Position numbers and translations under genes: made by a program. Below are positions 7,037 through 47,042 of a stretch of 54,340 bases of DNA, in pieces. The stretch spans positions 1-54,340 of the forward strand of contig JANXQJ010000148.1 in NCBI GenBank assembly GCA_025356865.1. Reading direction: 5' to 3'. Origin of the DNA: Deltaproteobacteria bacterium (GTDB lineage: Bacteria; Desulfobacterota; Deferrimicrobia; Deferrimicrobiales; Deferrimicrobiaceae). Under the pieces are notes generated by a model that was not told the origin of the DNA, did not search any database, and saw only the letters and a list, made by a program, of their open reading frames with translations. Within the stretch, counting starts at the first letter, position 1; each line of letters opens with the position of its first letter.

Positions 7037-7080
7037 TGTGTGCTCCTTTCGTTGGTTGGAATCTGCTTTGTCTCTCATAC

Positions 7081-7096
7081 AGCACGAACAGTGCCA
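7081..7096 (-). promoter_or_regulatory. sigma54 (-24/-12) promoter of pilA
   Basis: The minus strand reads TGGCAC-TGTTC-GTGCT. GG and GC have canonical spacing, about 45 nt upstream of the pilA ATG. A sigma54 activator gene (pilR) lies immediately upstream. Confidence 0.7.
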
Positions 7097-7144
7097 ATCG
7101 GACGATGCAAGATCATACCATGAGAAGCCGGTTGCAACGGGAAA

Positions 7145-30894: not shown

Positions 30895-30930
30895 GAATCG
30901 CCCCCCGGGATTGCTCCCGGGGGGCGATTC
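30895..30930 (-). terminator. Strong GC hairpin downstream of the nfnB-like gene
   Basis: gaatcgccccccggga-ttgc-tcccggggggcgattc forms a 16-bp perfect stem. On the minus strand it is followed by AATTTATT. Confidence 0.5.
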
Positions 30931-30951: not shown

Positions 30952-32382
30952 TTACCAGTTGCCGGTCAGCAGGTAGTCGTTCATGGCCGCGGCGGCCTTG
31001 CGGCCCGCACCCATGGCGAGGATGACCGTGGCGGCGCCGATGACGATGTCGCCGCCGGCAAACACGCCCTTCTTGCTCGTCTTGCCGGTCTCCTGGTCGG
31101 CCAGGATGTTGCCCCACTTGTTGGTGTCGAGCCCCGGAGTCGTGGCCGGAACCAGCGGGTTGGCGCCGTTGCCGATCGACATGATGACGACGTCGATGGG
31201 CAACTTGTATTCGGAGCCCTTGATGGGCACGGGACGGCGGCGTCCGGATGCGTCGGGCTCGCCCAGTTCCATCTTTTCGCACTCGACCTCGGTCACCCAG
31301 CCGTCCTCGTTGCCGATGAACTGAAGCGGATTGTTGAGGAGCCGGAAATCGATCCCCTCTTCCTCGGCGTGGTGGATCTCCTCGATGCGGGCCGGCATCT
31401 CCTTCTTGGAGCGGCGGTAGATGACGTAGACGTTCTCGGCCCCCATCCGCTTGGCCGTGCGCGCCGCGTCCATGGCGACGTTGCCGCCGCCGACGACCGC
31501 GACGTTGTTGACCTTGGAGAGCGGCGTGTCGGAAGTGGGGAAGTCGTACGCCTTCATCAGGTTGGCGCGGGTGAGATATTCGTTGGCGGAGTAGACGCCG
31601 ATGAGGTTTTCGCCCGGGATGTTCATGAAATAGGGCAGGCCGGCGCCGGTGCCGATGAAGACGGCGTCGAAACCTTCTTCCTCGAGCAACTCGTCGACCG
31701 TGATCGTCTTGCCGATGACCACGTCGCACTCGAGCTTGGCGCCGCACTTCTGGATGTATTCGATCTCGGCCTGGACGATGTCTTTCGGGAGGCGGAATTC
31801 GGGGATGCCGTACATGAGCACGCCGCCCGCCTTGTGGAGCGCTTCGAAGATGGTGACGTCGTGGCCGAACTGGATCAGGTCGCCCGCGACGGTGAGTCCG
31901 GCCGGCCCGCCGCCGACGATGGCGACCTTCTTGCCGGTGGGCGTTCCGGGCTTGGGAATCTCGACGTTTCCGGTGACGCGCTCGTAGTCGGCAACGAAAC
32001 GCTCAAGCCGCCCGATGGCGACCGGCTCGCCTTTCTTGCCGAGGACGCAGGGCGCCTCGCACTGCTCTTCCTGCGGGCAGACACGGCCGCACACTGCGGG
32101 CAGTGCGTTTGTTTCCTTGATTTTCTTGGCGGCTTCGGCGAATTTTCCCTTGGCGACCAGGTCGATGAACTCGGGAATCTGGACGCTGACGGGGCAGCCC
32201 TTGACGCAAGCAGGATTCTTGCACTGGATGCAACGCTGCGCCTCGAGGACCGCGAGGTCGGCCGTGAAACCGTAGGGGACTTCGTTGAAATTGTTGACCC
32301 GCACCGAAGGCGGCTGCTCGGGCATCGGCTGCCGCGGGATGCTGAACGGTTTCGGGCGAGGTTTGGTCGTGATTTCGGCCAT
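30952..32382 (-). CDS. NADPH-dependent glutamate-synthase-beta-like oxidoreductase (NfnB/SudA-type)
   Basis: Two [4Fe-4S] Cys clusters (CIQCKNPACVKGCP; CGRVCPQEEQCEAPC). Two dinucleotide folds (VAIVGGGPAGLT; VAVVGGGNVAMD). ATG at 32380-32382 overlaps the upstream stop by 1 nt. Confidence 0.85.
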   Translation of the reverse strand: MAEITTKPRPKPFSIPRQPMPEQPPSVRVNNFNEVPYGFTADLAVLEAQRCIQCKNPACVKGCPVSVQIPEFIDLVAKGKFAEAAKKIKETNALPAVCGRVCPQEEQCEAPCVLGKKGEPVAIGRLERFVADYERVTGNVEIPKPGTPTGKKVAIVGGGPAGLTVAGDLIQFGHDVTIFEALHKAGGVLMYGIPEFRLPKDIVQAEIEYIQKCGAKLECDVVIGKTITVDELLEEEGFDAVFIGTGAGLPYFMNIPGENLIGVYSANEYLTRANLMKAYDFPTSDTPLSKVNNVAVVGGGNVAMDAARTAKRMGAENVYVIYRRSKKEMPARIEEIHHAEEEGIDFRLLNNPLQFIGNEDGWVTEVECEKMELGEPDASGRRRPVPIKGSEYKLPIDVVIMSIGNGANPLVPATTPGLDTNKWGNILADQETGKTSKKGVFAGGDIVIGAATVILAMGAGRKAAAAMNDYLLTGNW

Positions 32383-33233
32383 CAGTTGGACCCTCCCATG
32401 CACTTCCCATCCTTGTGCTCGTATTTCTCCATTGCGACCTTCTCCTCGCGGAGGTAGGCCCGATTTCGCATCGTCAGTTCCTTGAAGTCGACCAGATGTC
32501 CGTCGAACTCGGGGCCGTCGACGCAGACGAACTTGACCTCGCCGCCGACGGTCACGCGGCAGGCGCCGCACATGCCCGTCGCGTCGACCATGATCGGGTT
32601 GAGACTCACCATGGTCTTGAGCCCGTGGGGGCGCGTCACTTCGGAGACGGCACGCATCATGGGAACAGGGCCGATAGCGATGACCAGGTCGATCTTGACC
32701 TTGGCGTCGATCATTTCCTGGAGCGCAGTGGTGACGAACCCCTTCTTCGCGTAGGATCCGTCGTCGGTGGTCACGATGAGTTCGTCTGAAATGGCCTTCA
32801 TCTCGTCTTCGAGAATGAGGAGTTCCTTGTTGCGCGCCCCGATGATGGAAACCAGCTTGTTGCCGGCATTCTTGATCGAGGTGGCGATCGGGAGCAGCGG
32901 TGCGGTTCCGATGCCGCCGCAGACGCAGACCACGGTGCCGAAGTTCTCGATATGCGTAGCCAGGCCCAGCGGGCCGACCACGTCCTGCAGTTCTTCGCCC
33001 GCCTTCATCTTCGAAAGCTCGGCGGTCGACTTGCCGACCACCTGATAGATGATGGTTACCGTCCCCCCGATCGGATCGGAGTCGACGATGGTGAGCGGAA
33101 TCCGCTCGCCGCCTTCACCCTTTCGGATGATGAGGAACTGGCCTGCCTTGCGCTTCTTCGCGATCCGCGGAGCCTGGATCTTCTGGAAGAAGACGTTCTT
33201 GGCGATCTCTCTGCTTTCTACGATTGGGAACAC
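32382..33233 (-). CDS. Ferredoxin-NADP reductase-like FAD/[2Fe-2S] subunit (NfnA/SudB/PyrK-type)
   Basis: RIPLTIVDSD FAD motif, VCVCGGIGTAPLLP NAD fold, C-terminal GMCGACRV...FVCVDGP cluster. GTG start preceded by GGAGGG. Confidence 0.85.
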   Translation of the reverse strand: MFPIVESREIAKNVFFQKIQAPRIAKKRKAGQFLIIRKGEGGERIPLTIVDSDPIGGTVTIIYQVVGKSTAELSKMKAGEELQDVVGPLGLATHIENFGTVVCVCGGIGTAPLLPIATSIKNAGNKLVSIIGARNKELLILEDEMKAISDELIVTTDDGSYAKKGFVTTALQEMIDAKVKIDLVIAIGPVPMMRAVSEVTRPHGLKTMVSLNPIMVDATGMCGACRVTVGGEVKFVCVDGPEFDGHLVDFKELTMRNRAYLREEKVAMEKYEHKDGKCMGGSN

Positions 33234-33326: not shown

Positions 33327-33355
33327 AAGATAACCGCTTGCGAGGAAAATTTCAA
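33327..33355 (-). promoter_or_regulatory. Candidate sigma70-type promoter for the nfnAB-like operon
   Basis: The minus strand reads TTGAAA-N17-TATCTT in the 118-bp gap. The -35 element overlaps the engB stop. Confidence 0.3.
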
Positions 33356-33948
33356 GTTGAAAAAGCGTTTCGGATATCTTTCCAGAGGGCATCGATCCCG
33401 GTACGGGTTTCGGCGGAACAAACCGCCGGCGGCCCCCCCGCATCAAGCCACGCCGTACCGGACAACCGGTCGATCGCCCCCTTGAGTTCGGTTCGCTTGA
33501 GTTTGTCGACCTTGGTCGCCACCCACCGGTACGGGACTCCGGCCGCGGACAGGTATTCGGCGAGCATTCGCTCCTCTTCCTCGGGCCCACGCCGCGCGTC
33601 CACCAGCAGGTAGACCTTGCGGAGACGGGTACAGGTGGAAAAATAACTTTCGAGAAGAATTTTCCAGGAGTCGCGCTCGTCACGCGACACCTTGGCGAAG
33701 CCGTATCCCGGCAGGTCGGCAAATGCGTACCGCGCCTCGATTTCGAAGAATACGATGCCGCGCGTCCGGCCCGGCGTCCGGCTGGTACGGGCCAGGTGCT
33801 TCTGTCCGGTCAGCGCGTTGAGCAACGACGACTTCCCGACATTGGAGCGACCCGCAAAGGCGACCTGGGGAAGCGCGACCTTGGGCCACGCGTCGCCGAC
33901 CGAATCGAATATGAGAAAGCGGGCCGGGGGGGCAGAGGGTCTGGGCAC
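33352..33948 (-). CDS. engB: Ribosome-biogenesis GTPase EngB/YihA
   Basis: G1 GRSNVGKSSLLNAL, G3 DLPGYGFA. 198 aa. Confidence 0.9.
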   Translation of the reverse strand: MPRPSAPPARFLIFDSVGDAWPKVALPQVAFAGRSNVGKSSLLNALTGQKHLARTSRTPGRTRGIVFFEIEARYAFADLPGYGFAKVSRDERDSWKILLESYFSTCTRLRKVYLLVDARRGPEEEERMLAEYLSAAGVPYRWVATKVDKLKRTELKGAIDRLSGTAWLDAGGPPAVCSAETRTGIDALWKDIRNAFST

Positions 33949-33958
33949 CAGTCGCCTG

Positions 33959-35710
33959 CTAACTCTGCCCGGCGGATTCGAGCGCTTCGAGATTGCTGAA
34001 AAACTCGTCGAAACTCTGGCCGGAATCGCGGCTGTACTCGAGAACGGAAATCTTGAATGAAAGATGCCCGTCGGAGAGTCGTTTTTCTCCGTAGAAGGTG
34101 AACGTGCCCAGGTCTTTCATGAGTTGATCGATCAGGTACTGACCCTGCTCGCGGTTCTTTCCCGGGAAAAGGGCGAGAAACGTGGCTCCGAAACAGCGGG
34201 CCGGGACAACGCCCATGACCTCCTGCCCCTTGAGCATTTCGGCGGTCTTCTGGAGGACGAAATCGCCCCGTTGATAGCCGTTGAGCTCGTTGTATTCCTT
34301 GAAGTTGGCCAGGTAGACGAGTCCGGCTGCGAACGGGACCTTGTCGCGGAGGGAGGTCGCGATGAACTCTTCGGCGAGCCCCTTGACGTGCCTGAGGTGG
34401 AACAGCCCGGTCAGCCGGTCGCGATTTTCGAGTTCCTGCGCCGCTTTCCGTATGCTCTGGACCTGGATCGTGTTCTCGATGAGAGAGGCCATCTTGTAGG
34501 CGAAATTTTCGATCGCCTCGACGTCGTCGGACGTCAGCGGACGGCGGCTCATCTTGTTGTCCACACCGAGAACGCCGATGACCCTGTCCTTGGTGCAGAG
34601 CGGGAACACGGCAAACGACTTGGAGCGGAGTGAGCGGATATTGCTTTGGGGCGCAAGGAGGCGGAGGTCTGAAGGCACCGCGTTCGATTCGTCGACGTGG
34701 ATGCTTTTCTTGGTCATGAAGACGCGCGCCATCGCCCCCCCCTGGGAAGAGAGCGGCACGCTGATCTTTTCTTCGGACTCGAACACGTTGCCGACCGAAG
34801 CGCGGCAACGGAGCGTCTTGCCTTCGTCATCGGGCATCATCAGCAGAATGCGGTCGACATCGAAACGTTCCTGGGCGACTCCGAGCACCAGCGGAAGGTG
34901 GGATTCGAGGAAACCCGAATATTGCATCGCGATGCTGAGGTCGTAGAGGCGGGTCAGGCTGTTGCCCGCCTTTTCGAGCTTCTTGCGTGACGCCGTGAGT
35001 TCCTGGTTCATCATTTCAAGGCGGCGATTGGATTCTTCCTGCTCTTTGTAGTAAGGCCTGATGATGATGCTCATCGCAAACCACGTGAACGCGACGACGA
35101 GGACGGCCATCGCCACGCAGGTGATCATGATGACCCGCTTGATCCGGTCGAGTTCGGAATAGGCGGTGGATTTCGGCTGGTCTACGGCGATCAGCCACCC
35201 CTTTTCCTTGATGACCCGGAACGCGATGATCTTGTTGTCGCCCAGCAGGGTATATTCGCCGAAGCCGCCATCGAACTTCTCGAGCAGTTCCTGCAGCTTG
35301 GCCTTGTGGACCATGTTTTTTTCGCCGAGTTGCTGGATCGGTCTCTCGGCGACGTTGAGATTGACGTAGGTGTCGCCGATGTAGGTCTGCGCCTCGACCA
35401 TGTTGCGGAATTTCGGATCCATGTGGGCGATCAGGAAGCCGTTCCGGTCCATCACCCAGGCGGCGCCGAACTTGTCGACCTTCATCGAGGTCAGCGCGTC
35501 GACCAGCACGGCACTGCCGGCATTCTCGTCCTCCGACTTGAACGAACTGATCTCGCGCGCAAGATCGCGCGCCGTCTTTTGGGCATCCACCTTGATGGCG
35601 TCTTCGCTGATCTTGAAGACCATGACGCCGCCGAGGCTGATGGTCACCAGCGCCAGCAGCATCGAGGTGATGATGAGTTTGAATCCGAGGGAACCGTAGA
35701 TTTTTTTCAC
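33959..35710 (-). CDS. Membrane sensor: periplasmic Cache-like domain, GAF domain and degenerate GGDEF domain
   Basis: Two TM helices flank a ~170-aa periplasmic domain, followed by a GAF-like region (…RILLMMPDDEGKTLRCRASVG…DRVIGVLGVDN). The GGDEF fold begins RDRLTGLFHLRH, but the active-site position reads FGATF instead of GG(D/E)EF. GTG start after GGGAGG. Confidence 0.8.
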   Translation of the reverse strand: MKKIYGSLGFKLIITSMLLALVTISLGGVMVFKISEDAIKVDAQKTARDLAREISSFKSEDENAGSAVLVDALTSMKVDKFGAAWVMDRNGFLIAHMDPKFRNMVEAQTYIGDTYVNLNVAERPIQQLGEKNMVHKAKLQELLEKFDGGFGEYTLLGDNKIIAFRVIKEKGWLIAVDQPKSTAYSELDRIKRVIMITCVAMAVLVVAFTWFAMSIIIRPYYKEQEESNRRLEMMNQELTASRKKLEKAGNSLTRLYDLSIAMQYSGFLESHLPLVLGVAQERFDVDRILLMMPDDEGKTLRCRASVGNVFESEEKISVPLSSQGGAMARVFMTKKSIHVDESNAVPSDLRLLAPQSNIRSLRSKSFAVFPLCTKDRVIGVLGVDNKMSRRPLTSDDVEAIENFAYKMASLIENTIQVQSIRKAAQELENRDRLTGLFHLRHVKGLAEEFIATSLRDKVPFAAGLVYLANFKEYNELNGYQRGDFVLQKTAEMLKGQEVMGVVPARCFGATFLALFPGKNREQGQYLIDQLMKDLGTFTFYGEKRLSDGHLSFKISVLEYSRDSGQSFDEFFSNLEALESAGQS

Positions 35711-35717
35711 CGCGCGT

Positions 35718-37310
35718 TTATCCTCCCGCGGGGGGCATTGGGGGTAGCTCGAACATCAAACCGGGGGGATGGCACTTGTCGCAACCGCCTTTGACCTGAA
35801 GTTTGATCTCGTCGGATGCGTGCGGGACGTGGCAGGAATTGCATGCCAGGTTGCCCTGCTTGTCGAGCTTGACCGGACGATCTGTTTTGGGGGGAACACC
35901 CCACGGGTGCGTGTGGTTCATCCGGCTCAGATTGCTGTGGCAGGAAAGACAAAGGTCGTTTCCCGGAAACTTGAGGAACGCGTCGTTTCGGGCCGACGAG
36001 TGGGCATCGTGGCACCCGGTGCAATTGCCGTCGCTGACGGGCTTGTGGACAACCTTGCGGAACGAGACGGATTTCAGGCTCTCATGGCACATGACGCAGA
36101 GGTCGCCGACGTATCGGCGCAGCGTGAACTTCTCGTTGGACGAGTGCGGATTGTGGCAGATGGCGCAAAGCCCAGCCGACATGGGACCGTGAAGGAACGT
36201 CTTGACCAGCTCTTTTCGCTTGTCTTCGTGGCACTTGAAACAGAGTTCCTGGCCGGATGCCATCGGTTCGTACCGGTGGGGCCTGCTGGAGAAGTTGTGG
36301 CAGGGTGCACAACCGCCAACGGGTATGGGACCATGAACGTGTTTCTGGCTGGTCAGTTCCTTGTGGCACCCCAAGCAGAACTGCGTCGCGGTCGCGAAAC
36401 CCTGCGCCCCGCCTTCGGGTGGGTTGAGGTCGTGGCATTTCTTGCAGGGGCCTTCGTTCTTCTCGGTGTGGAAATAGTAGATCGGGAAGGGAGATTCGAT
36501 CCCTGAACCGATCTTGGGTTCCCGGAAAATGACGATTCCCTGGTTGACCTTGCCACCGAGGTCGTCGACGACCTGGACTTCGATGTAGTTCGACCCCAGC
36601 GACAACGGCGTGCGGATGTAGAACAGGTCTCTCATGGAGGTGATGTTCTGCTGGGAGCCGCCGTTGAGCGACAACGACAATTTGCTGCCCGGCTTCGACG
36701 TGCCCACGACGTAGACGGAATCCTGATAGGTTTTCGAGAAGTTGGCCGGCAGGAAGACCTGCAGCGGAAGTTCTTTCATCAGTTTCTCGACGCCCGTCTC
36801 GCCCCGGATGACGCGACCGAGAACATCTTCGAGCGTCTTGAGGTCTTCGGGGGAGGCGCCTGTCGACAGGTAGCGGACGAAACCTTCCTTGTCGATGACG
36901 ATGTGGGCCGGGATTGACTGGATATCGAATGGCCGGGATGCAGCCAGTTTTTCGTCTACGATGAACGGGTACTTGATTATGGAGCTGTAGCCCCGGTAAA
37001 ACCGCTTGACCCGGGCGAGTCCGTAAACGTCGAGGTTAAGCCCCACGATCTGGAGGTCCGACGGCTTGAATTTTTTCTGGATTCGGGCGACATCCTCCAG
37101 CGAGGTCACGCACGTGGAGCAGTATATGGAGCCGAACTTGAGGAGTATGACCTTCTTTCCAAGGTAGGCGCCGAGGTCGACCCGGGTTCCGTCGAGCCCG
37201 TCGCCCTTGATAGCCACTGCCTTGTCGCCGATATTGGCCGCTTGAACAGCCCCCGGAAAGAGCAGCAGAGCTGCGCCGAAAAGGGCGGCGAAGGCAAAAC
37301 CCTTCATCAT
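35718..37310 (-). CDS. Exported fusion protein: TlpA/AhpC-TSA-like thioredoxin-fold domain + beta-sandwich linker + decahaem c-type cytochrome
   Basis: Signal peptide MMKGFAFAALFGAALLLFPGAVQA. Redoxin CxxC (FGSIYCSTC). Ten CxxCH motifs (CKKCH, CLGCH, CAPCH, CFKCH, CAICH, CVMCH, CTGCH, CLSCH, CNSCH, CDKCH) in the last ~230 aa, plus 11 additional His. Starts 4 nt after the TlpA gene stop. Confidence 0.85.
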   Translation of the reverse strand: MMKGFAFAALFGAALLLFPGAVQAANIGDKAVAIKGDGLDGTRVDLGAYLGKKVILLKFGSIYCSTCVTSLEDVARIQKKFKPSDLQIVGLNLDVYGLARVKRFYRGYSSIIKYPFIVDEKLAASRPFDIQSIPAHIVIDKEGFVRYLSTGASPEDLKTLEDVLGRVIRGETGVEKLMKELPLQVFLPANFSKTYQDSVYVVGTSKPGSKLSLSLNGGSQQNITSMRDLFYIRTPLSLGSNYIEVQVVDDLGGKVNQGIVIFREPKIGSGIESPFPIYYFHTEKNEGPCKKCHDLNPPEGGAQGFATATQFCLGCHKELTSQKHVHGPIPVGGCAPCHNFSSRPHRYEPMASGQELCFKCHEDKRKELVKTFLHGPMSAGLCAICHNPHSSNEKFTLRRYVGDLCVMCHESLKSVSFRKVVHKPVSDGNCTGCHDAHSSARNDAFLKFPGNDLCLSCHSNLSRMNHTHPWGVPPKTDRPVKLDKQGNLACNSCHVPHASDEIKLQVKGGCDKCHPPGLMFELPPMPPAGG

Positions 37311-37314
37311 GCCC

Positions 37315-37902
37315 TCACTTCTTGAGAACGGACTGGATTGCTTTTTCGAGCTCCTCTTCCTTGATTCGTCCCGACCTGGCCATGGTGACGTTCCCGGCAC
37401 GATCGATGATGAAGATGGTCGGGGTACCGCCCACACCGTAAGGATCGGCGACCTTGAACATCTCCTTGGCATCGAGTTCGTCGATGAGCGTCCGGATCGA
37501 GTAGTTTTCCTGCTTGATGAAGCCGTCGATGCTGCTCTTGAGGGGTTCTCCGTCAAGAACCACCGAGATCACTTCGAGCCCCGCGGCCTTGTTCTTGTCG
37601 GCCAGTTTCTGGATGACCGGCATCTCGAAGCGGCACGGTTCGCAGAAGATGGACCAGAACACGATGACGACCGGTTTCTTGCCCTTGAGGTCGGCGAGAT
37701 GGAACGACTCACCCTTCGTGTCCTTGAGGGTGAAATCTGGGGCGGCCGCCCCCAGGTCAAGCATCTTGATGCCTTCAATCATCGGGATCCCGCCACCTAG
37801 CGGCGTCATCGCCTTTTCCTCGGCGAGACAGACCGTGCCGAAGATGGAAAGAACCGTTGCTGCTGCGACGAGGAGTACCCCGGACTTCGCAAGGAAGCGC
37901 AT
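37315..37902 (-). CDS. Periplasmic thiol:disulfide oxidoreductase (TlpA/ResA/CcmG-like)
   Basis: Signal anchor MRFLAKSGVLLVAAATVLSIFG. VVIVFWSIFCEPCRFEMP CxxC thioredoxin motif. AGGAGG lies upstream of the ATG. Confidence 0.85.
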   Translation of the reverse strand: MRFLAKSGVLLVAAATVLSIFGTVCLAEEKAMTPLGGGIPMIEGIKMLDLGAAAPDFTLKDTKGESFHLADLKGKKPVVIVFWSIFCEPCRFEMPVIQKLADKNKAAGLEVISVVLDGEPLKSSIDGFIKQENYSIRTLIDELDAKEMFKVADPYGVGGTPTIFIIDRAGNVTMARSGRIKEEELEKAIQSVLKK

Positions 37903-37904
37903 AC

Positions 37905-38846
37905 CTATTTTCTCCTCCTGACCTTTTGGATGAGGTTGTTTCCGGTGTCGGCCACCAGAATGTCTTCCCCGAAAACATCGTTGATGAAAAAACCCTCTGG
38001 CTTCTTGAAAGGAGAATGTCCCTTTCGGAGGTCGCCCAGCATTTCACCGGCCCGGTCGAAAAGCACCATCCGATCGTTGACGGTATCGGCAATATACACT
38101 GTATACCTGCGGGGTTCAATCCGAATTCGGGCCGGCCCGCAAACCAGCCCTTCACCCTTCTGAAGCATCGACCAGACAGCGACGGAGAGGCCGTCCATGT
38201 CATATTTCCGGATGGAACAATCGGCTGTCAGGACATAAAGAAACCCGAAAGCTTCGTCGGAGTAAGCGATCGACACCGGCTTTTCGAGATCGTTTCCTTT
38301 TCGCTGCTGGGCGTAACGGCCCCATTCCTCGAGAAAGGCACCCGTCGGATCGAACTTCTGCAACCGGTTGTTGCCCGGGTCTGCAACGAACAGGTTTCCT
38401 TTCCGATCCAGTGCAAGGTCTGAGGGTTTGTTGAATTCGCCACGACCCGATCCAAGCCGGCCGAACTCGAGGATGTATTTACCGGCCAGATCGAACTTCT
38501 GGATGCGGTTGTTGCCGGTATCGAGCACGTATAGAACGCCGGCACCCCGGTCGATCACGATCCCCGACGGGTTGTCGAAGGATCCCTTTCCGAACCCGCG
38601 GCCACCCCATTCGCGCAGAAACCGCCCCCTGCGGTCGAGAACCTGCACGCGGTTGTTGCCCCGGTCGACGATATACATGTTTTCGTCCCGGTCGCCGACC
38701 AGGTCGGCCGGATGGTCGAAGGCCTCTCGGCCGATCCCGAAACGTCCCCACGCCTCGTCGGACTCGAACACAGGATCGGAAAAGGCTGCCCCGCCGAGTG
38801 CGAGAAGCAGTAGCAACGCAATGGTCGGTATCCTCAGGTTCCTCAC
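37905..38846 (-). CDS. Secreted NHL-repeat six-bladed beta-propeller protein
   Basis: Repeats GNNRVQVLD, GNNRIQKFD, GNNRLQKFD, VNDRMVLFD, GNNLIQKV. The GTG at 38844-38846 gives the signal peptide (M)RNLRIPTIALLLLLALGGAAFS. An alternative ATG at 38900 has no RBS. Confidence 0.8.
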   Translation of the reverse strand: MRNLRIPTIALLLLLALGGAAFSDPVFESDEAWGRFGIGREAFDHPADLVGDRDENMYIVDRGNNRVQVLDRRGRFLREWGGRGFGKGSFDNPSGIVIDRGAGVLYVLDTGNNRIQKFDLAGKYILEFGRLGSGRGEFNKPSDLALDRKGNLFVADPGNNRLQKFDPTGAFLEEWGRYAQQRKGNDLEKPVSIAYSDEAFGFLYVLTADCSIRKYDMDGLSVAVWSMLQKGEGLVCGPARIRIEPRRYTVYIADTVNDRMVLFDRAGEMLGDLRKGHSPFKKPEGFFINDVFGEDILVADTGNNLIQKVRRRK

Positions 38847-38907
38847 GAGGCAGCCCCCCCTTTCGTCCCGTTTGACGGCATTGCCGCCCGGTTCATTCAA
38901 ATCAGGA

Positions 38908-39999
38908 TCAGATCTTGGGGAGCAGCGACTCCGTGATCACGATCTTTGCCTTGGCCTTCAGAGGCGCGAGGAAAGCCTCGACCGCCTTGCGCTTCTTGTC
39001 GTCCTGGAGGAACGAGACGATCTGGCTGCGCACTTCGGCCAACGGCATGACTTTCCCGCCCTTGCTGAACATTTCCTTGTGGTCGTTGTAGGTGGCCTCG
39101 ATTTCCTTGTCGGAGACGACCAGGTCCTTGAAGATGACCTTCTCGGCAAGCAGTCCGATGAGGACCGAGTTCTCGAGCAGGGAACGGTCGAGTTCGAGCC
39201 AGCGCCCTTTTTCTCCCCCCTGCTGCTTTGCATAGGCCAAGAGGGATCGATTCGACAGTTCCTGCCCGATGACGCTCGTGAGCGCCTTTTCGTCCTTCGA
39301 GAAATCTTTTCCGGAGTGCTGGCCGCCGCCGGCCGCCATCCCCTTCTCGATCAAGACCTTGGCTTCGCCGTAGGTGATCTTGTCGGCGCCGACCTGGCCG
39401 ACCACCGTGTCGTCGGCCACTTTTTCGCCCTTGCCGATCCGGCCGATGACGGCGGTATCGATCTTTTCGGGAAACGCCTTGCGCGCCGCTTCCGAAACCT
39501 CGGTCTGGACCTGCGAAAGCTTGCTGCCGAAAACCGCCTGTCCCGCCTGGAGACGGGCATCGGTGGGCTTGAGGTTGTTGTCCTTGGCCATCAGGCCCTT
39601 GGCGGCCGTTTCGATTTCGCTTTCGGCCTTCTTGCCCCGTGCGTCGAGTTCCTTCCGGAAGAGCCCCTTGATGACGATCCCCGGCTCGCCGGCGCGAACG
39701 GCGTCCTTGAATTCCTTTGTGTTGTCGAGACCCTGCGTGCGCGCCTCCTGCGCAAGAATGCGCGTCTCGGCAATCTGCTCGACGATCTTCTTTTTCTGTT
39801 CCTTGTCGAAATTGGGCGCGGATACCAGCCCCCCCGGGATGCCGATCGCTTCCCGGACTTCCATCACCGTGATGCGGTTGCCGTTGACGGTCGCAACGGT
39901 TTCGTTGATGGATTCATCGGACGTGCAACCCGAAAACAGAACGGATGCTGCCGCAACGGCGACGGCCCCCATGATCAGTCTTGATTTGATGCGTTCCAA
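38908..39999 (-). CDS. SurA-N/PrsA-like periplasmic chaperone lipoprotein (no recognisable rotamase domain)
   Basis: Lipobox LFSGC. VATVNGNRITVMEVREAI is typical of SurA_N-type chaperones, and the body is Lys/Glu-rich and helical. The TTG at 39997-39999 follows GGAGAATTAC. The track start 40056 would include the upstream terminator hairpin. Confidence 0.6.
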   Translation of the reverse strand: MERIKSRLIMGAVAVAAASVLFSGCTSDESINETVATVNGNRITVMEVREAIGIPGGLVSAPNFDKEQKKKIVEQIAETRILAQEARTQGLDNTKEFKDAVRAGEPGIVIKGLFRKELDARGKKAESEIETAAKGLMAKDNNLKPTDARLQAGQAVFGSKLSQVQTEVSEAARKAFPEKIDTAVIGRIGKGEKVADDTVVGQVGADKITYGEAKVLIEKGMAAGGGQHSGKDFSKDEKALTSVIGQELSNRSLLAYAKQQGGEKGRWLELDRSLLENSVLIGLLAEKVIFKDLVVSDKEIEATYNDHKEMFSKGGKVMPLAEVRSQIVSFLQDDKKRKAVEAFLAPLKAKAKIVITESLLPKI

Positions 40000-40028
40000 C
40001 GTAATTCTCCCCTCTGTGATTCGAAATA

Positions 40029-40064
40029 ACGCACCCTTGGCGCGCGTTGGCGCCAAGGGTGCGT
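40029..40064 (-). terminator. Intrinsic terminator or attenuator between the lipoprotein gene and the chaperone gene
   Basis: 15-bp perfect stem acgcacccttggcgc/gcgccaagggtgcgt with a 6-nt loop. On the minus strand it is followed by TTATTT. Confidence 0.5.
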
Positions 40065-40103: not shown

Positions 40104-41225
40104 CTATTTGGCAGGCGCTTCAGCCGGAGCCGGCTCGGGGGCAGGCGCAGGCGCCGGTGCTTCGGCTGCGGGCGTCGCCGGAGCCGCTGCCGGGGCCGGT
40201 TCGGCCGATGGAGCGGGTTCGGGGGCCGGAGCGGGCGCCGGAGCCGCCTTCTTGGCGGCAGCGGCTTCTTCTTCGGCCTTCTTTTTCGCCTCTTCGATGG
40301 CCTTGCGGTCATCCTCGAGTTTTTTCTGCTCTTCGGAGACCTTCTTCTTTTCCATCTCGACCTTCAGCTTGTCCTGGTCGATCTCCTGCTGCTGCTGCTG
40401 GGTCTTGGCTTTTTCGGACTCGAGCGCCGCCTTCTGGAGCTCCATGTCGGACTTGAGCGCCTCGACTTCCTTGGAAGCGCTGTCCTTGATCCCCTTGGCC
40501 TCGGCCTTCGCCTTGTCGAGCTGTTCCTGGATCTTGCCGGTCTCGCCCTTGAGCGCCTTGAGACGGAGCTCTTCCTTCGAGGCCTCGTTCTTGAGATCGG
40601 CGATGATCCCCTTCTTTTCACGGTCGCGCGCCCTGACGACATGGGCGGTCATCGAGTCGCCCAGATAGCGGACCGCCTCGCGGGCCACCTCGATGTCGGT
40701 CTTGCCCTCGGTAACGCCGAACACCTTCCCGACCGTCAGCCCGCCGTAGGCGCTGACGTTGCCGACCCACAGGACGGTGCCGGTCGAGGGATCGACCATG
40801 GCCATGTCCATCGTGACCTGGGATGCCGAATCCTTCTCCTTGCCCTTCCCGTAAAGAAGCAGTTTGCCGTAGAGGATTCCCTGGACGTTCATTTCGTCGC
40901 CGAGTTTCTTGAGAACTTCCTTCTCGAGACTTTCGGTCGAGGTGATCTTGAGCTTTTTCATCGAATCTCGAACGAACCGGGTGTCTTCGACCTCGTCGAA
41001 AATCCCTTCGGAACGCAGCGTGGGAATGAGAAGCGCCTCGATGGAACGCTCGGCCTCCTTGGTATCGGAGTAATTTTCAAACGGGAATACCGCTACCCGC
41101 TTGACTTTCGTGTACTGGTCTTTCGTCTTCGAGGGCAACGCGTTGTCTCTCAGCATCGGGCGGGAACACCCGACTGCGAGCAGCAACAGCGCAAACCCCA
41201 GACCGATCGTCCTCGTGGTACCCAT
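40104..41225 (-). CDS. Lipoprotein: LpoB/DUF799/TolB-N-like alpha-beta domain + long coiled coil + Pro/Ala-rich tail
   Basis: Lipobox LLLAVGC|S. VAVFPFENYSDTKEAE...VQGILYGKL motif typical of that lipoprotein fold. ~150 aa Lys/Glu heptad-like region (…QQQQQEIDQDKLKVEMEKKKVSEEQKKLEDDRKAIEEAKKKAEEE). AAGGAGG lies 6 nt before the ATG at 41223-41225. Confidence 0.7.
   Translation of the reverse strand: MGTTRTIGLGFALLLLAVGCSRPMLRDNALPSKTKDQYTKVKRVAVFPFENYSDTKEAERSIEALLIPTLRSEGIFDEVEDTRFVRDSMKKLKITSTESLEKEVLKKLGDEMNVQGILYGKLLLYGKGKEKDSASQVTMDMAMVDPSTGTVLWVGNVSAYGGLTVGKVFGVTEGKTDIEVAREAVRYLGDSMTAHVVRARDREKKGIIADLKNEASKEELRLKALKGETGKIQEQLDKAKAEAKGIKDSASKEVEALKSDMELQKAALESEKAKTQQQQQEIDQDKLKVEMEKKKVSEEQKKLEDDRKAIEEAKKKAEEEAAAAKKAAPAPAPAPEPAPSAEPAPAAAPATPAAEAPAPAPAPEPAPAEAPAK
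40107..40247 (-). repeat. Low-complexity Pro/Ala(Glu) coding repeat (C-terminal 47 aa of the lipoprotein)
   Basis: AAPAPAPAPEPAPSAEPAPAAAPATPAAEAPAPAPAPEPAPAEAPAK. Confidence 0.7.
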
Positions 41226-41252
41226 CAGCTCCTCCTTGCTCACCTGGCTGGA

Positions 41253-43127
41253 TTAAAAATTGTACTTGAAATCGACGCCTACCTTATAACTTTCATCAAG
41301 CAACAGCGACAACGTCTTGGTCTGGTTGTAACTCAGCGAGAAATCCCATTTTTTCGCGGTCCAGGTCCCCTTCCAGTCGAAGGTCCACTTGTTGGCCTTG
41401 TCGGCCCTCAGGTTCCGGTCGTACTTGTACGTTGCGTTCCATCCGAAGGCCGAATATTTGTAGTCGACCTTGACCCCGAAATTCTCGGTGACGTCCGGCC
41501 CGTCGGCATCGCCGCTCGTGTCGTTTGCAGAACGGGAAAAGTCGAGCCCGCCGGTGTAATCGGGGACGACATCCTTGATCGTGACGTTGCCCGACGACGA
41601 ATCGGAACGCGTGATGTTGTTGAGGACGGGGTCCTTGTGGCCTTTCTCCTGCTTGCGCCCGTAAGTGTGGTCGACCTTGAACTCGATCGTGCGCGTCACC
41701 AGCACGGTCTTGGCGACCTTGACCTTGAAGTCGCGCGTGTCGATGACCTCGCGTGCGGAGATGTCGAGGTTCGTGTAATCGCGCTTGATGCCGATGTCGT
41801 AGCTCGGTTCGATCAACAGGTCGAGCCGCTTGAAATCCAACGGCCCTTTCAACCCGTACTTGGTCTCGGAAGTCTTGAGAAACCGGCTTCGCAAGACAGT
41901 GAAGTCGTCGGTGTCGGTCTTGTCGTAGGTGATGGACGGCTTCCAGAAGGGAAGCAACTCACCGTTCCAGCTCGCGGAACGGGCTGTGTTTCCGGTCCGT
42001 TTCGAGGGGGCGCCCGGGTTCTCGATCAGGATGTTGTGCCGCGCATACTTGCCGTTCAACTGGAGTTTCGGACCGAAATCGCCCTTGGTTTCGAGCGTCC
42101 ATCCGTCGTCGATGTTGATGCCCGGAGCCAGCGTGTGCCGAACGTCGGTCTTGGCCCGCGTGAACTCTCCCCTGAGCTCGATCGGCCGTCCGACCTTCTG
42201 GCTGACCCGAACCGCCGTGTTGGTCGTGATGGTGTGTTCCTCAAGCGAGAGCAGGGGGGAGACTGCCTTCGGGACCATCGTCTGCTTCAGGTCGTAATCG
42301 TAGGTGGCGTCGAAAGACGTAACGTCGAACGGACGGAATGAAAAGGTGTTTTTCGAGGTGTGCGCCTGGTCTTCCTTCACGGATTCGCCCTTGGCGGCTC
42401 CGTTGTCGAAGAAGGTAGCACCGCGCGAAAACTCGGATTTCCACTCGGAGCCGAGTTTGAGCTTGTCGGAAAGGAAATGCCGGACCCCGCTCGTGAAACT
42501 GTATTTCTCTTCCCGCGTGACCGGCGTGAGTTTCGGGTCGACGACATCCTTCCGGAAACGCTCGTCATCGTTGCTCCAGGTGTAGTCGCCCTTTACGTTG
42601 AACCACTCGGCGGGCTGGTAGTTCGACGAGAGCGTCACGGTCTGCTTGAACTTGTCGGTCTGGCCGACCTGCGTGTCGAGGTCGGCCCCGTATTTGGCCT
42701 TGAGGTCCGGCGTCCCGAAACGGAACGGCTTGTAGAGCAGTTCGACAAAGTAGGAGTCGGTGACCTTCTGCGGGGTGTCGGGTTCCTGGGTGACCGACCG
42801 CTTGGATCCCGCTCCCCAGTAGGATCCCTTGTAGGTCAGCGTGATCGCCGGGTACATGCGGACCTTGGCTTCGGTCGTGGACCCCTTGTCGTAATCGATC
42901 TTGAAGGTGAGTTCGTTCTCGATGACAGGCGACAGGAACCCTGAATATTTCGTGTCGAGCGTTTGCTTGAACGTGCGGGTGTCCTTGTATTCGGTCTTTT
43001 TCTGGACATCCTGGGTCCACCCCAGCGTGTATGAACCGCTGACAAACCCCTTGGCCGATGCCGAACCGCAAGGGATGGCCAGCAGCGCAGCGATGGCCAC
43101 GGCGGCGAGGGTGCGGGAGAAACTCAT
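41253..43127 (-). CDS. Outer-membrane beta-barrel protein (~600 aa mature), family unassigned
   Basis: Signal peptide MSFSRTLAAVAIAALLAIPCGSASA. Alternating-hydrophobicity strands rich in Y/K/D/T/S/N. C-terminal YKVGVDFKYNF with terminal Phe (BAM-type signature). ATGA overlap with the protease gene stop. Confidence 0.7.
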   Translation of the reverse strand: MSFSRTLAAVAIAALLAIPCGSASAKGFVSGSYTLGWTQDVQKKTEYKDTRTFKQTLDTKYSGFLSPVIENELTFKIDYDKGSTTEAKVRMYPAITLTYKGSYWGAGSKRSVTQEPDTPQKVTDSYFVELLYKPFRFGTPDLKAKYGADLDTQVGQTDKFKQTVTLSSNYQPAEWFNVKGDYTWSNDDERFRKDVVDPKLTPVTREEKYSFTSGVRHFLSDKLKLGSEWKSEFSRGATFFDNGAAKGESVKEDQAHTSKNTFSFRPFDVTSFDATYDYDLKQTMVPKAVSPLLSLEEHTITTNTAVRVSQKVGRPIELRGEFTRAKTDVRHTLAPGINIDDGWTLETKGDFGPKLQLNGKYARHNILIENPGAPSKRTGNTARSASWNGELLPFWKPSITYDKTDTDDFTVLRSRFLKTSETKYGLKGPLDFKRLDLLIEPSYDIGIKRDYTNLDISAREVIDTRDFKVKVAKTVLVTRTIEFKVDHTYGRKQEKGHKDPVLNNITRSDSSSGNVTIKDVVPDYTGGLDFSRSANDTSGDADGPDVTENFGVKVDYKYSAFGWNATYKYDRNLRADKANKWTFDWKGTWTAKKWDFSLSYNQTKTLSLLLDESYKVGVDFKYNF

Positions 43128-46100
43128 CGAGAGATGCGCTCCCGCACGTCCGGGACGGAAAGCGGGCCGGGACGGTCGCCTCCGAAGCGACGAACCAGAA
43201 GCGCCGCGGCAGCCATCAGCCAAAGAACGGCCAGCTTGCCGGCAAGGCCGGTTCCGGCATAGAACCCGGCAAACAGCGCGGCCGGTGCGAGGGCGAAGCG
43301 CGCGGCGGCGCGCAGGAACGGACGCGTGGCGATGAAATCGGCCAAGGGGGGACTTGCCTTATAGTAGAAGGCAACCAGCGAGCGTCCGACCGGATTGGCC
43401 AGCAGGAACCCGTCCCGGAAACGGCGCAGCGTTTCGACCTCGGGCGCCATCTCGGAACCGTAGGCGGCCGTCGCGATGAAACACCCGCCGACGAGCAGGC
43501 CGTCCTTGAACGGGGCGACCGGCTTCCAGGTGGCCTGCCGGCTGATGGACGGACCGGTAACCGGCTTGTAGGTCGCCGTGATGATGGTCGAGGGCTTGAT
43601 GACGGCGATGCGCCTGAACGTCGACACGTTGTCGGATGACCCGAGCGAGAAACCGAAGCGGCCGGCGAAGACGTTGTCGGCAGTTCGGGCCAGCGACACC
43701 GTGATGCCCCCCGCCGTCGAACCGGCGCTCGACGAGACCAGGACGGTGAGGACGTTGTCGGCCGCAGGCACGTTTTCGTCGAGCACGGTGACGAAGGCGA
43801 CGGCGCCTTCGTTCAGGTAGGTGTCGCGGTCGAGCGTCATGGATGCGCCCGATCCGAACCGGACCGCGCCGGAATTCTTCGTGCCGAACCAGACGTTGAA
43901 TCCGCCGTCGCTGAACGCGCCGATGAGGTCGCAAACGAAACTGCTGCTCGCGATCTGGCGGGCCGGCTGGAACGGGAAGTTCCGCTTGGGGTCAAGAGGC
44001 GACAGGGCGGGATTGTCCTTGAATACGGTCCGGGCCGCCTCGTACCATCCGCCCGTGCGCGCGATGCGCCGGTTCGCCATGGCGGCGACGTCGATCCGTT
44101 CGGCCCCCCCGCCGGCTCCCTCGGTCAGGACCGAGGGTTCGCCGTGCGAAACCCAGATGACGCCGTTGTCCTGGCCGTTCATCTGGAGCACCACGCCGGT
44201 CGGGACCACGCTCGTTGTAAACCCGGAAGGATATATCTCGGCTGGAAGCGGGATATAGCCCGAGAATACGTCGAGCACGCCGTCGCCATTCATGTCGTAT
44301 GGGTCGAAGAAACTTTTTCCGGGGGCCTCGTGATATTCCCCCCGGTCGTAGGGCAACAGGCCCTGGTTGGTCGCAATCCAGAGCGTGCCGGCCCCGTCGA
44401 CCGACATCCCGTAGACGGACGACGGCACCGGGCCGGGCAACGGCATCTCCTCGAACTTGAGGGTCTGCGAAAAGAACAGGTCGTCGACGTTCCCGGAGGC
44501 CGGGTAAAGCGGGTAGAGGAGGGCCCCGTTGTCGGGTCGCGCGTTGCGGAAGACACGCCCCTGGCTGGTCCCGATGTAGAGGACGTCCTTGAAGGGAAGC
44601 GGGTCGGCCGGGTTGGACGAAATGATGTTGTTGTCGATCGCGAGGCAGGTGATCGTTTCGCCGGCGTTGAGCCCGCCTTCGGTCTGCCCGGAGCGGAACA
44701 ACCGCAGGTTGACCCCCGACTGAAGTTCGTTGGAGGAAGAGGTCGTGTCGAAAACGACGTTGAGCGCGGCCCCGCCGCCCGTCACGACCCACTTCTTGGA
44801 CTGCCGGTCGATCAGGAGCAGCTTGACGTTGAGGTTGGGCGGGAACGTCAAGACCGGGGGCAGGAAGCGTTCCCCCTGGACGCGGTCGAGCGACTGGCTG
44901 GTTCCGACCCACATGGTGTTGGATGCGACATCGTAGGCCATGGCCTGAACGGAGGCGGGAACGACCTGGGTCAGGTGGGTCCATTTGTTGATGGCGTAGA
45001 TCCAGATGCCCTGAAGTTCGGTGCCGATCCAGGTGCGGCCCGAACTGTCGGCGGCGTAGCACAGCACGCGCGGCCCCAGTTCCCCCTGCCCCGGAACCTC
45101 GGTGAAGTTTCTCCAATAGGGCATATCGGCAACGAAGTCGAATGCGGCGGAGAAGAACTGGACGACGAGTTGCCACCCCACATCGAGGGCGCTTCTCAGC
45201 GTCCAGGGCGCCAGGTTGGTTTCGTTGGCGCCGTCGACGGGCGTCTTGCGGTCGATACGGCTGCCGGACCCGAAATAATCGCCGGCGGAACCGAAATAGT
45301 AGGCGTTGGATGCCGTGATCACGTTGTCGGGGATGGTGCGCACCAGGTGCGGGATGAATGGAGACCCCGGGAAATTGGCGAGGTCGGGCAGGTCGGCTTC
45401 CATCACCGAGAGCGCCAGGTGCGGGTAGGCGGCCGTGTTGTCGTTGTTGACCGGCGGACGGAGCAGCGGCGTGGTGGACGACTTGCGCCACGCTTCCATC
45501 TTGGCGCCGTCGACGCGCCAGACCAGGATGCCGCCGCCGGGAAGGCCCCCATCGAAGAGCGTGCCGCCCGTGCCCGGCTGCCGGTTTTCGAGCAGGACGA
45601 ACTGGGTCTCGTCACCCGGGCCGTTGGGGTAGATCTTGAAGGCGGCCAGGCTGGTCTCGGCAGCGGGAACCGAAAGCCCCGCGACCGAGCGGGAGACGAC
45701 CGTCGGATTGAACCACCCGAGCTCGATCTTGGACCAGGCCGAGAGGTGTGACGGCGATTCGGTGCCGGGAGGCGCCCCGGAAAGGAGGGTGCCCGGCCTG
45801 CGGCCCGCCGAGACGGGGCTTCCCCACATGCCGTAGCCCATGAGGTCGAAGACGCCGACGCCGGAATAGTCGGCCAGCGCCTGCCCCTGTTCGCCCGTTC
45901 CGGTGGGGTAGAGATCGGGAAGCCCGAGCAGGTGCCCCATCTCGTGGGCGACGACCCCGACGCCGATCAACCGGTCGTTGAGGATATTGTTGACCCAGGC
46001 GCTCCCCGTGTTGTTGTTTTCGGTGTCGTTGTAGTACTGGAGCGACGGCACGAGCATATAGTCGGTTATGACCGAGTTGTCGGAGGTCCGGATCGGCGTG

Positions 46101-46858: not shown

Positions 46859-47042
46859 CTCACTCCTTGGGGTCGCAAACAGGGCGTCAAAAGACGCACC
46901 GCAAACGTGTTCGGACAAGTATAGTCAAACTGCGTGCCAGATCGACAATTATATTCGTTTTCAATCCTCATTCCGTTTGCCCATTCCCCCAGTTTCGTAC
47001 GGGTATACTATGTTTACAAATTTGTCCGAGAGGAGAGATGGC

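Follow-up and report, generated by a model that had tools for sequence, protein, structure and literature searches.

We report here a previously undescribed gene module of an uncultured deltaproteobacterium which resembles a porin-cytochrome complex and whose sole cytochrome is a fusion protein, with a thioredoxin-fold domain and a decahaem domain joined in one chain. The stretch analyzed, called the window below, comprises the 54,340 nucleotides (nt) of positions 1 to 54,340 of contig JANXQJ010000148.1 (assembly GCA_025356865.1, Deltaproteobacteria bacterium, family Deferrimicrobiaceae). The fusion gene lies at 35718..37310 on the minus strand, as do all the genes and domains located below, and specifies a protein of 530 amino acids (aa) made up of a signal peptide, a redoxin domain of ResA/TlpA fold, an immunoglobulin (Ig)-like sandwich and a decahaem domain, as supported by its translation, by Pfam and NCBIfam matches and by more than 110 clusters of full-length homologues. 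The parts are of known kinds, namely a ResA-fold redoxin, an MtrA-like decahaem domain and a large beta-barrel, although on their sequences they miss the curated thresholds and some defining features of each kind. As the best explanation we tentatively propose a single-cytochrome outer-membrane haem conduit of the MtrAB/PioAB/MtoAB type, bearing a tethered dithiol/disulfide centre at its periplasmic end.

Architecture of the fusion protein

The original prediction, made by a model from the letters of the window alone, had described a signal peptide, a redoxin domain, an all-beta linker, ten CxxCH motifs, 11 spare His and CxxCHxxH spacing within one open reading frame (ORF), and all of these were confirmed by the ORF, by Pfam and by AlphaFold2 (AF2) modelling. 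The ORF runs uninterrupted over 530 codons from an ATG at 37310 to a stop at 35718; the ATG begins 4 nt past the stop codon of its upstream neighbour, with a GAGGG ribosome-binding site before it. The Sec-type signal peptide (aa 1-24; 37239..37310), MMKGFAFAALFGAALLLFPGAVQA followed by AN, ends in GAVQA, and its translation has neither a twin-Arg motif nor a lipobox; an N-terminal hydrophobic segment is present in all aligned homologues.

The thioredoxin-fold domain of TlpA/ResA-like type (aa 27-170; 36801..37232) matched Pfam Redoxin over aa 28-164 (E 1.3e-16) and AhpC-TSA (E 1.4e-15), the two together covering aa 27-164. AF2 modelled it with a block-mean predicted local distance difference test score (pLDDT) of ~70-93, and model and Foldseek comparison agree on a TlpA-type thioredoxin fold with the central insert. 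Foldseek placed it with ResA/DsbE at template modelling (TM) scores of 0.86-0.91 and a root mean square deviation of 1.7-2.3 Å, while a profile search of the PDB returned ResA at E 1.8e-18; the possibility, raised with the original prediction, that the redoxin region might lack a functional fold in structure prediction was thus answered by a predicted ResA-like fold. Its active site, C64-S-T-C67 (37110..37121), lies inside the motif FGSIYCxxCxxS, invariant in the homologue alignment. For conservation we compared 121 full-length members, which are 37-100% identical, and found C64 and C67 in 121/121 and P134 invariant at the cis-Pro position (the cis state is taken over from the family), so that the CxxC and cis-Pro features of the TlpA/ResA/CcmG type are both present. 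The dipeptide between the cysteines is S-[ST] in 111 of the 114 homologues bearing the motif. The site as a whole reads Y-C-S-[ST]-C-[VI]-x-S; its dipeptide has no Pro, and an invariant Ser70 takes the place of the acidic residue that follows CxxC in ResA/CcmG-type proteins. Apocytochrome reductases of that type require this acidic residue (Glu80 of ResA). The fusion scored 51.9 bits with the ResA model NF002854, whose cut-off is 170, and did not match the DsbE model TIGR00385. Judged by its motifs the fused domain is a thiol:disulfide oxidoreductase and not a peroxiredoxin, because it has the invariant Pro at the cis-Pro position.

A variable linker of ~20 residues (aa 165-185) leads from the redoxin to the Ig-like beta-sandwich (aa 183-262; 36525..36764). 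The latter was recognized from seven predicted strands (AF2, pLDDT 57-76), from a weak Pfam Glucodextran_B match at aa 183-263 and from the conserved columns NFTKTxQD, LNGG, RTPLSLGSN and FR. It leads straight into haem 1, and the junction, FREPKxGxGIESPFPxYxFH, is highly conserved.

The decahaem domain (aa 275-514; 35769..36488), delimited by Pfam and NCBIfam matches, by its match to MtrA and by conservation, carries ten CxxCH motifs in the 226 aa from C289 to H514, along with nine conserved candidates for distal His. Pfam matched three Paired_CXXCH_1 units (E 6e-36) and cytochrome c3/c7 families over aa 280-514, and CxxCHxxH spacing was read at haems 5, 7 and 9. All thirty Cys and His residues of the ten motifs are kept at 100% in the 121 members. 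In the PDB the domain matched 6r2q_A, the MtrA chain of the Mtr complex whose structure is solved, with E values of 2e-15 (profile) and 7e-11 (single sequence), the alignment being partial and shifted in register; with TIGR03508, the DmsE family model, it reached E 1.2e-28 and 100.3 bits, under the cut-off of 192.2. Since CxxC, P134 and the ten CxxCH are invariant in the 121 members, the thioredoxin domain is, as far as sequence conservation tells, under strong selection. It may be noted that 6r2q_A goes under the name 'Cystathionine beta-synthase' in the local copy of the PDB; this is a labelling error, since the entry holds the Mtr complex and the chain in question, a multihaem protein of 333 aa, is MtrA. 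It may also be noted that in the most divergent, Rokubacteria-type loci (L037, L039, L040, L044 and L045; 36-39% identity) the fusion has 8-9 canonical CxxCH, not 10.

Distribution of the fused family

A search of 5.8 billion proteins gave 309 homologues, among them more than 110 clusters (at 90% identity) with full-length Redoxin plus Paired_CXXCH architecture, 41-85% identical to the window protein and drawn from JGI, ENA, NCBI and Logan assemblies. When one genome per GTDB species was scanned, the fused architecture was found in 40 loci, all in uncultured metagenome-assembled genomes (MAGs) labelled Deltaproteobacteria, Deferrisomatales, Thermodesulfobacteriota or Rokubacteria. Clustering at 50% identity reduced the fused family to ~4-6 representatives. 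The family is therefore small and recurrent, with ~40 species-level MAGs, and is not a singleton.

The homologues bear automatic names only, 'redoxin domain-containing protein', 'cytochrome c3 family protein' or 'predicted CXXCH cytochrome family protein'. For the whole protein, none of the NCBIfam or Pfam models reached its cut-off, and the PDB profile search returned no solved structure with a redoxin plus decahaem architecture. The claim that the fusion is undescribed, which was to fall if the architecture proved a common annotated family, has thus held in these databases, where no curated family covers it. We know of no characterized CxxC thioredoxin fold joined to a multihaem chain; this covers the databases named and not the literature, in which a prior description may exist.

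A conserved module around the fusion

The fusion belongs to a tight string of co-directional genes, with gaps of 0-10 nt where the starts are clear. A second redoxin, an NHL propeller, a large barrel with a lipoprotein and a protein with a degenerate GGDEF domain make up a context that was absent from the original prediction. We compared 44 related loci (L001-L045 minus L006), and the order NHL protein, redoxin, fusion, signalling protein was essentially universal among them, while lipoprotein and barrel genes stood upstream of the NHL gene wherever the flank suffices. The full order of barrel, PelC-like lipoprotein, NHL, ResA-type thioredoxin, fusion and signalling protein recurs down to 36% identity, and a profile of the barrel detected it in 28 of the 29 loci with enough upstream DNA, all but L019. 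In 43/44 loci the fusion is the only ORF with at least 3 CxxCH within +/-10 kb, and in the window no other ORF has more than one. The fusion being the sole multihaem ORF, the two redoxins are the only periplasmic redox partners that the module encodes. No DsbD/CcdA family member was detected among the ~36 window ORFs scanned against Pfam, as the original prediction had stated for the window, nor in the annotated flanks of loci L001-L005.

The barrel (41253..43127; 624 aa, C-terminus FKYNF) has a signal peptide and was modelled by AF2 at a mean pLDDT of 85.6 as a plug-less outer-membrane beta-barrel of ~30 long antiparallel strands. Among 350,000 PDB chains its best Foldseek match was MtrB (6r2q_B; E 2e-10, TM 0.43), and TonB-dependent receptors, LptD and ushers gave TM 0.19-0.37. 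If the model is right, this is an uncharacterized giant-barrel family in its own right, larger than the 26-strand barrels of MtrB and LptD. Its 47 homologues are all named 'hypothetical' or 'predicted porin'.

Next to the barrel is encoded a PelC/LpoB/GNA1162-like lipoprotein (40104..41243; lipobox LAVGC) with weak Pfam GNA1162-like and LpoB matches. Its N-domain weakly matched PDB 5t10/5t11 (E ~1e-3), which we take to be PelC, and is followed by a coiled coil of ~130 residues rich in Lys, Glu and Gln and by an Ala/Pro-rich tail (APAPAPEPAP...). In distant loci the lipoprotein aligns over the N-domain only. The NHL-repeat beta-propeller (37905..38900; NHL E 1.2e-23) has a signal peptide and an uncertain true start, and its position adjoining the stand-alone redoxin is conserved. 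It may be mentioned that a Cys pair of the propeller, C228/C254, is kept in 16 of ~31 orthologues and possibly forms a clade-specific disulfide or serves as a redoxin client.

The stand-alone redoxin (37315..37902; 195 aa, FWSIFCEPCRFEMP) is of ResA type by AhpC-TSA (E 9.5e-24), Redoxin (E 1e-22) and ResA NF002854 (E 4.7e-27) matches and lies directly upstream of the fusion in every locus having upstream sequence. Its ResA-type site, FWSIFCEPC[KR]xE[ML]P, is essentially invariant. The two redoxins are 23% identical and both have the unusual SI[YF]C context; a recent tandem duplication as the source of the fused thioredoxin is unsupported at 23% identity, despite that common context. The active sites, CS[ST]C-xx-S in the fused domain against CEPC[KR]xE[ML]P in its paralogue, together with the low identity argue for a division of labour rather than redundancy.

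On the other side of the fusion, 7 nt downstream, lies the gene for a membrane protein with Cache-like, GAF and degenerate GGDEF domains (33959..35710; Pfam GAF and GGDEF matches). This gene adjoins the fusion in ~30 loci, and in L003 a histidine kinase (HisKA) and a sigma-54 regulator take its place in the same position. In the window the GGDEF motif is replaced by FGATF, and every orthologue whose motif region was recognized has [FY]G[AS]TF; inspection by eye showed no RxxD I-site in the window protein. From these motifs the protein is probably a receptor or transducer and not a diguanylate cyclase. The region of the first metal-binding Asp also appears altered by eye (LANFKEYNE).

No conserved Cys was found in the periplasmic part of the sensor, in the barrel or in the lipoprotein, and a thiol-switch client in any of these three is thereby unsupported. 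Besides the two CxxC sites, the only universally conserved Cys residues of the module are the 20 haem-binding ones.

Haem ligands and unfused relatives

The window protein has 11 spare His, of which 9 are essentially invariant in the fused family, and no conserved Met was found among the 121 members. With nine conserved spare His and no conserved Met, the conserved residues would not suffice for bis-His ligation of all ten haems, and an N-terminal haem may be five-coordinate, or bound by a ligand that is neither His nor Met.

The exhaustive hidden Markov model search also recovered unfused proteins of ~350-400 aa which match only the Ig-like and decahaem part of the profile. In these, ten spare His are invariant, including one of the Ig-like domain (xFHxxxxL). 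At the corresponding position of the fusion (aa 231; window ~36618-36620) the 121 fused members have Tyr in 98 cases, Trp in 15 and His in 1. This suggests, at the level of alignment, that an N-terminal haem altered its coordination once the thioredoxin was acquired; the changed site would lie near the tethered CxxC, a hint favouring direct interplay of thiol and haem. Because P0172 is fused and yet retains the His, fusion appears to have come first, followed by loss of the distal ligand of one of haems 1-3. A strict coupling between gain of the thioredoxin and loss of the Ig-domain His is not upheld, as P0319 and P0172 are both fused and have the His.

The closest unfused relative, P0186, has fused proteins as its own nearest relatives (~44% identity), and its gene (locus L046) lies between the end of a TlpA-like gene and a Cache/GAF/GGDEF homologue. 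A more distant unfused relative adjoins ResB/CcsA cytochrome-maturation genes. Another protein, P0230 (423 aa), has a thioredoxin-like domain without CxxC (FGSIYSSAG) and fewer haems, and retains the Ig-domain His. Nature thus provides 'controls' of two kinds, P0230 without the CxxC and P0186 without the thioredoxin domain.

A possible haem conduit with a dithiol centre

We argued that if the fusion acts as MtrA does in MtrB, and PioA/MtoA in PioB/MtoB, its MtrA-like decahaem domain would insert in the co-encoded ~30-strand barrel and span the outer membrane. The Ig-like and thioredoxin-fold domains would then remain at the periplasmic mouth of the barrel, with the thioredoxin domain tethered through its variable linker. 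The N-terminus of MtrA is periplasmic, and it is by analogy with it that we place both domains there. The invariant C-S-[ST]-C would swap electrons with the first haems, so that the periplasmic 'plug' of the conduit would be a dithiol/disulfide couple and not a soluble cytochrome, and this couple would probably communicate with the neighbouring ResA-type redoxin and perhaps with the NHL propeller.

Electron flow from dithiol through the haems to an external acceptor is the direction we favour, since transfer from a thiolate to a ferric haem is facile and roughly isopotential or downhill, since one-electron reduction of a disulfide by a low-spin bis-His haem is very unfavourable, and since a chain of ten haems is a good two-electron sink. 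The conduit would in that case be a disulfide-generating electron sink, analogous to QSOX, the VKOR-Trx fusions and Mia40-Erv1-cytochrome c. The second option of the original prediction, a haem wire serving a thiol or peroxide redox centre, gains support in its thiol part, because of the barrel and lipoprotein context, the lack of another redox partner in the module and the loss of a haem ligand in the fused clade; its peroxide part is not supported, since the PxxxT/SxxC motif is missing.

A more specific proposal, which we hold to be doubtful, is that the CxxC reacts at, or ligates, an N-terminal c-type haem without its distal His, giving a haem-thiolate/disulfide centre and an outer-membrane-wired disulfide relay through the ~30-strand barrel. 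With no flavin, Fe-S cluster or quinone involved, such a centre would break up the two-electron chemistry of thiols into single-electron steps from haem to haem, and extracellular minerals would set the thiol redox state of the periplasm, or take up its electrons, with no need of DsbB/VKOR or CcdA/DsbD.

Several points weigh against a thiol-bearing haem conduit. No structure puts the CxxC near a haem, and the AF2 model of the haem domain, built from a 23-sequence alignment, has a pLDDT <50 and is unusable for the CxxC-haem distance. We know of no well-established precedent for direct haem-disulfide exchange without flavin, Fe-S cluster or quinone. The barrel, with ~30 strands against 26 and a modest TM of 0.43 to MtrB, matched no PDB sequence even with a 47-sequence profile, and in Pfam it matched neither PF11854 (MtrB_PioB) nor any other family above threshold. 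It could be an export channel, given the PelC-like lipoprotein, against which stands the lack of other Pel components in the module. On a complete MAG chromosome (L019) NHL, thioredoxin and fusion genes occur without an adjoining barrel gene. The same module occurs without the fused redoxin in L046, where the decahaem protein has no fused thioredoxin, and the thioredoxin is therefore not indispensable to the module. Lastly, two deep-branching fused members, P0172 and P0319, retain the Ig-domain His, so that the tie between ligand loss and fusion amounts to essentially a single evolutionary event and is suggestive only, a hint and not a statistic.

Known periplasmic thiol routes end in quinones (DsbB, VKOR) or start at cytoplasmic thioredoxin (CcdA/DsbD), and the outer-membrane haem conduits known so far receive their electrons from soluble or membrane cytochromes. 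A CxxC redoxin welded to an MtrA-like decahaem domain with a giant barrel of its own would form a bridge between the two areas. Its existence suggests that in some subsurface anaerobes disulfide chemistry is linked to acceptors or donors of electrons outside the cell, and it offers a compact, testable system for electron exchange between haem and thiol.

Alternative explanations

Among the alternatives a maturation device is possible, though we incline against it. Here the redoxin, emerging first from Sec, would act in cis as reductase or holdase for the 20 haem-binding Cys of its own chain; the ResA-type neighbour would recharge it, drawing on a CcdA encoded elsewhere, and it would have no role in the mature wire and might be clipped later. 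Clipping has reportedly been seen for the N-terminal extension of PioA and for OmcZ, and the variable linker between thioredoxin and Ig-like domain could be the cleavage region. Reduction of apocytochrome CxxCH is the classical task of the TlpA/ResA/CcmG family, ResA is the best match of the fused domain in both fold and sequence, and a true ResA-type gene always adjoins the fusion. It also counts in favour that the haem-binding Cys are the sole universal Cys of the module beyond the two CxxC sites (the NHL pair occurs in about half of the loci), that a distant unfused relative sits beside ResB/CcsA genes, and that the unfused orthologue in L046 shows the wire to exist without a fused thioredoxin. 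Against this, Ser70 of the fused domain replaces the acidic residue that ResA/CcmG-type reductases need, and it is the stand-alone neighbour that has an acidic residue there. Most multihaem cytochromes do without a private redoxin, the presence of the CxxC in 121/121 members is stronger conservation than expected for a replaceable helper, and why the fused clade lost a distal His is left unexplained.

The original prediction had added that a built-in apocytochrome reductase might be removed by the neighbouring protease, and this option has weakened, through the rarity of the protease, through Ser70 and through the separate ResA-type gene upstream. The protease, an accessory M6-like metallopeptidase (43124..46918; ORF of 1264 aa, weak Peptidase_M6 match), was detected in 8/44 related loci, in the closer clade alone (L004/L015, L012-L014, L016 and L018). 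It is thus not a conserved neighbour, and being clade-restricted it was rejected as the processing enzyme of a general mechanism. If the redoxin were a maturation aid only, the module would still be a new class of barrel, lipoprotein and decahaem cytochrome that can be added to gene catalogues of extracellular electron transfer, and it would show a multihaem protein carrying its own assembly factor.

Rather unlikely, in our judgement, is a redox sensor, in which the haem wire would report the extracellular or periplasmic potential to a thiol/disulfide or haem-thiolate switch in the thioredoxin domain, to be read by the Cache-GAF-degenerate-GGDEF protein, or in L003 by the histidine kinase with the sigma-54 regulator, and to control surface behaviour. 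The original prediction had listed a sensor of redox state as its third option, and this is consistent with the signalling gene directly after the fusion in ~30 loci, the type differing in L003 and the position being the same. The GGDEF domain is degenerate wherever its motif region is recognized, as fits a receptor or transducer, the protein has a periplasmic Cache-like domain, and a haem with no fixed sixth ligand next to a CxxC would resemble known thiolate-switch haem sensors. On the other hand, a ten-haem wire with a 30-strand barrel is a heavy investment for sensing, the sensor has no conserved periplasmic Cys, no RxxD I-site is apparent in the window protein, and adjacency may merely reflect regulation of the operon.

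Very improbable is a thiol peroxidase or detoxifying reductase with a peroxiredoxin-like centre supplied by the haems, for although there are Pfam AhpC-TSA and weak peroxiredoxin NCBIfam matches, and Bcp/AhpE among the lower Foldseek matches, the peroxiredoxin models gave E 3e-4 or weaker, far under their cut-offs, and the ResA/DsbE matches are far stronger. Like the site of thiol:disulfide oxidoreductases, that of the fusion is a CxxC accompanied by an invariant Pro at the cis-Pro position, LLKFGSIYCSTC has no PxxxT/SxxC motif, and position -7 is Leu; on these active-site features (CxxC, P134 and the missing motif) a peroxiredoxin identity was rejected. An artefact in which a sequencing or assembly frameshift joined separate redoxin and cytochrome genes, a test posed by the original prediction, can be excluded, since more than 110 clusters from independent assemblies and 40 MAG loci share the continuous architecture of what is one real gene, since its junction is highly conserved, and since the gene of the upstream stand-alone redoxin is intact, distinct from the fusion and closed by a stop codon.

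Comparison with known systems

The fusion and its barrel share with MtrA-MtrB of Shewanella MtrCAB and with PioAB/MtoAB a decahaem domain of ~250 aa made of paired-CXXCH units and homologous to MtrA, and, encoded alongside it, a very large outer-membrane barrel predicted to have no plug and to come closest to MtrB in structure; like PioAB/MtoAB, the module has one cytochrome only. A long N-terminal extension is found in PioA too. Unlike MtrA, PioA and MtoA, the fusion falls short of the TIGR03508 cut-off (100 against 192) and has nine and not ten conserved distal His. The barrel, with ~30 strands in place of 26, was linked to MtrB or PioB neither by sequence nor by Pfam. The module further differs from these systems in having no extracellular cytochrome, in an N-terminal extension that is a folded redoxin plus Ig-like domain, and in its additional PelC-like lipoprotein, NHL propeller and second redoxin.

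Like ResA, CcmG (DsbE) and TlpA, the fused domain is secreted to the periplasm, has their fold and combines a CxxC with an invariant Pro at the cis-Pro position, and the stand-alone neighbour has the exact ResA site, CEPC[KR]xE[ML]P. The fused domain departs from them in its Y-C-S-[ST]-C-x-x-S site, which lacks both a Pro between the cysteines and an acidic residue after the motif, in being joined to a cytochrome and not acting in trans, and in that no CcdA/DsbD is encoded nearby (window ORFs scanned, annotated flanks of L001-L005). The tethering of a TlpA-like domain to an electron-exchange module recalls PilB (Trx-MsrA-MsrB), DipZ (CcdA-Trx-beta-sandwich), QSOX and VKOR-Trx, and as in DipZ the thioredoxin is paired with a beta-sandwich. 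The thioredoxin domains of PilB, DipZ and Msr proteins are direct sequence and structure matches of the fusion. In the redoxins known to be fused to a client or sink the partner, to our knowledge, uses Cys, flavin or quinone, and we know of no characterized case with a c-type haem chain.

The pairing of a redoxin gene with an adjoining NHL gene is reminiscent of SOQ1 and NHLRC2, and the family profile matches the thioredoxin domains of SOQ1 (7djj) and NHLRC2 (6gc1). Unlike in those proteins, redoxin and NHL propeller are separate polypeptides here, in a bacterial outer-membrane and cytochrome context and with other active-site motifs. Finally, a weakly PelC-like lipoprotein encoded next to a barrel and a membrane protein with GAF and degenerate GGDEF domains in the same module are reminiscent of Pel export. 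Of that machinery (PelC, PelB and PelD with PelA/E/F/G) the weak PelC-like match alone was found. No PelA/E/F/G-like or glycosyltransferase genes were seen in the module by the window Pfam scans or in annotated flanks, and PelD was absent among the PDB matches of the GAF-GGDEF protein; with no PelD match and no I-site seen, its identity as PelD is unsupported. The barrel is moreover about twice the size of the PelB porin.

Other genes of the window

In the closer clade only, the module is accompanied by the M6 peptidase, a SurA-like gene, EngB and Nfn. The SurA-like gene encodes a SurA-N/PPIase-like lipoprotein (38908..40056, probable start near 39972; lipobox LFSGC) with weak SurA_N and Rotamase matches and was detected in 13/44 related loci. 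Pfam scanning identified EngB (33352..33948) and an NfnAB-like pair (30952..33233); in the closer clade (73-98% identity) these genes continue the string downstream in the same orientation. The pair is NfnAB/sulfide-dehydrogenase-like and consists of a DHODB Fe-S/NAD-binding subunit and a Fer4_20/Pyr_redox_2 subunit. A strong, GC-rich terminator-like hairpin of 16 bp at 30895-30930, the sole strong one, ends the gene string. Elsewhere in the window (6539-8668, minus strand) a type IV pilin gene (N_methyl and Pilin_PilA; 179 aa) lies directly downstream of the gene for a sigma-54 response regulator (507 aa). In Geobacter-like bacteria pilR and pilA are similarly arranged, and the pair may have a bearing on extracellular electron transfer.

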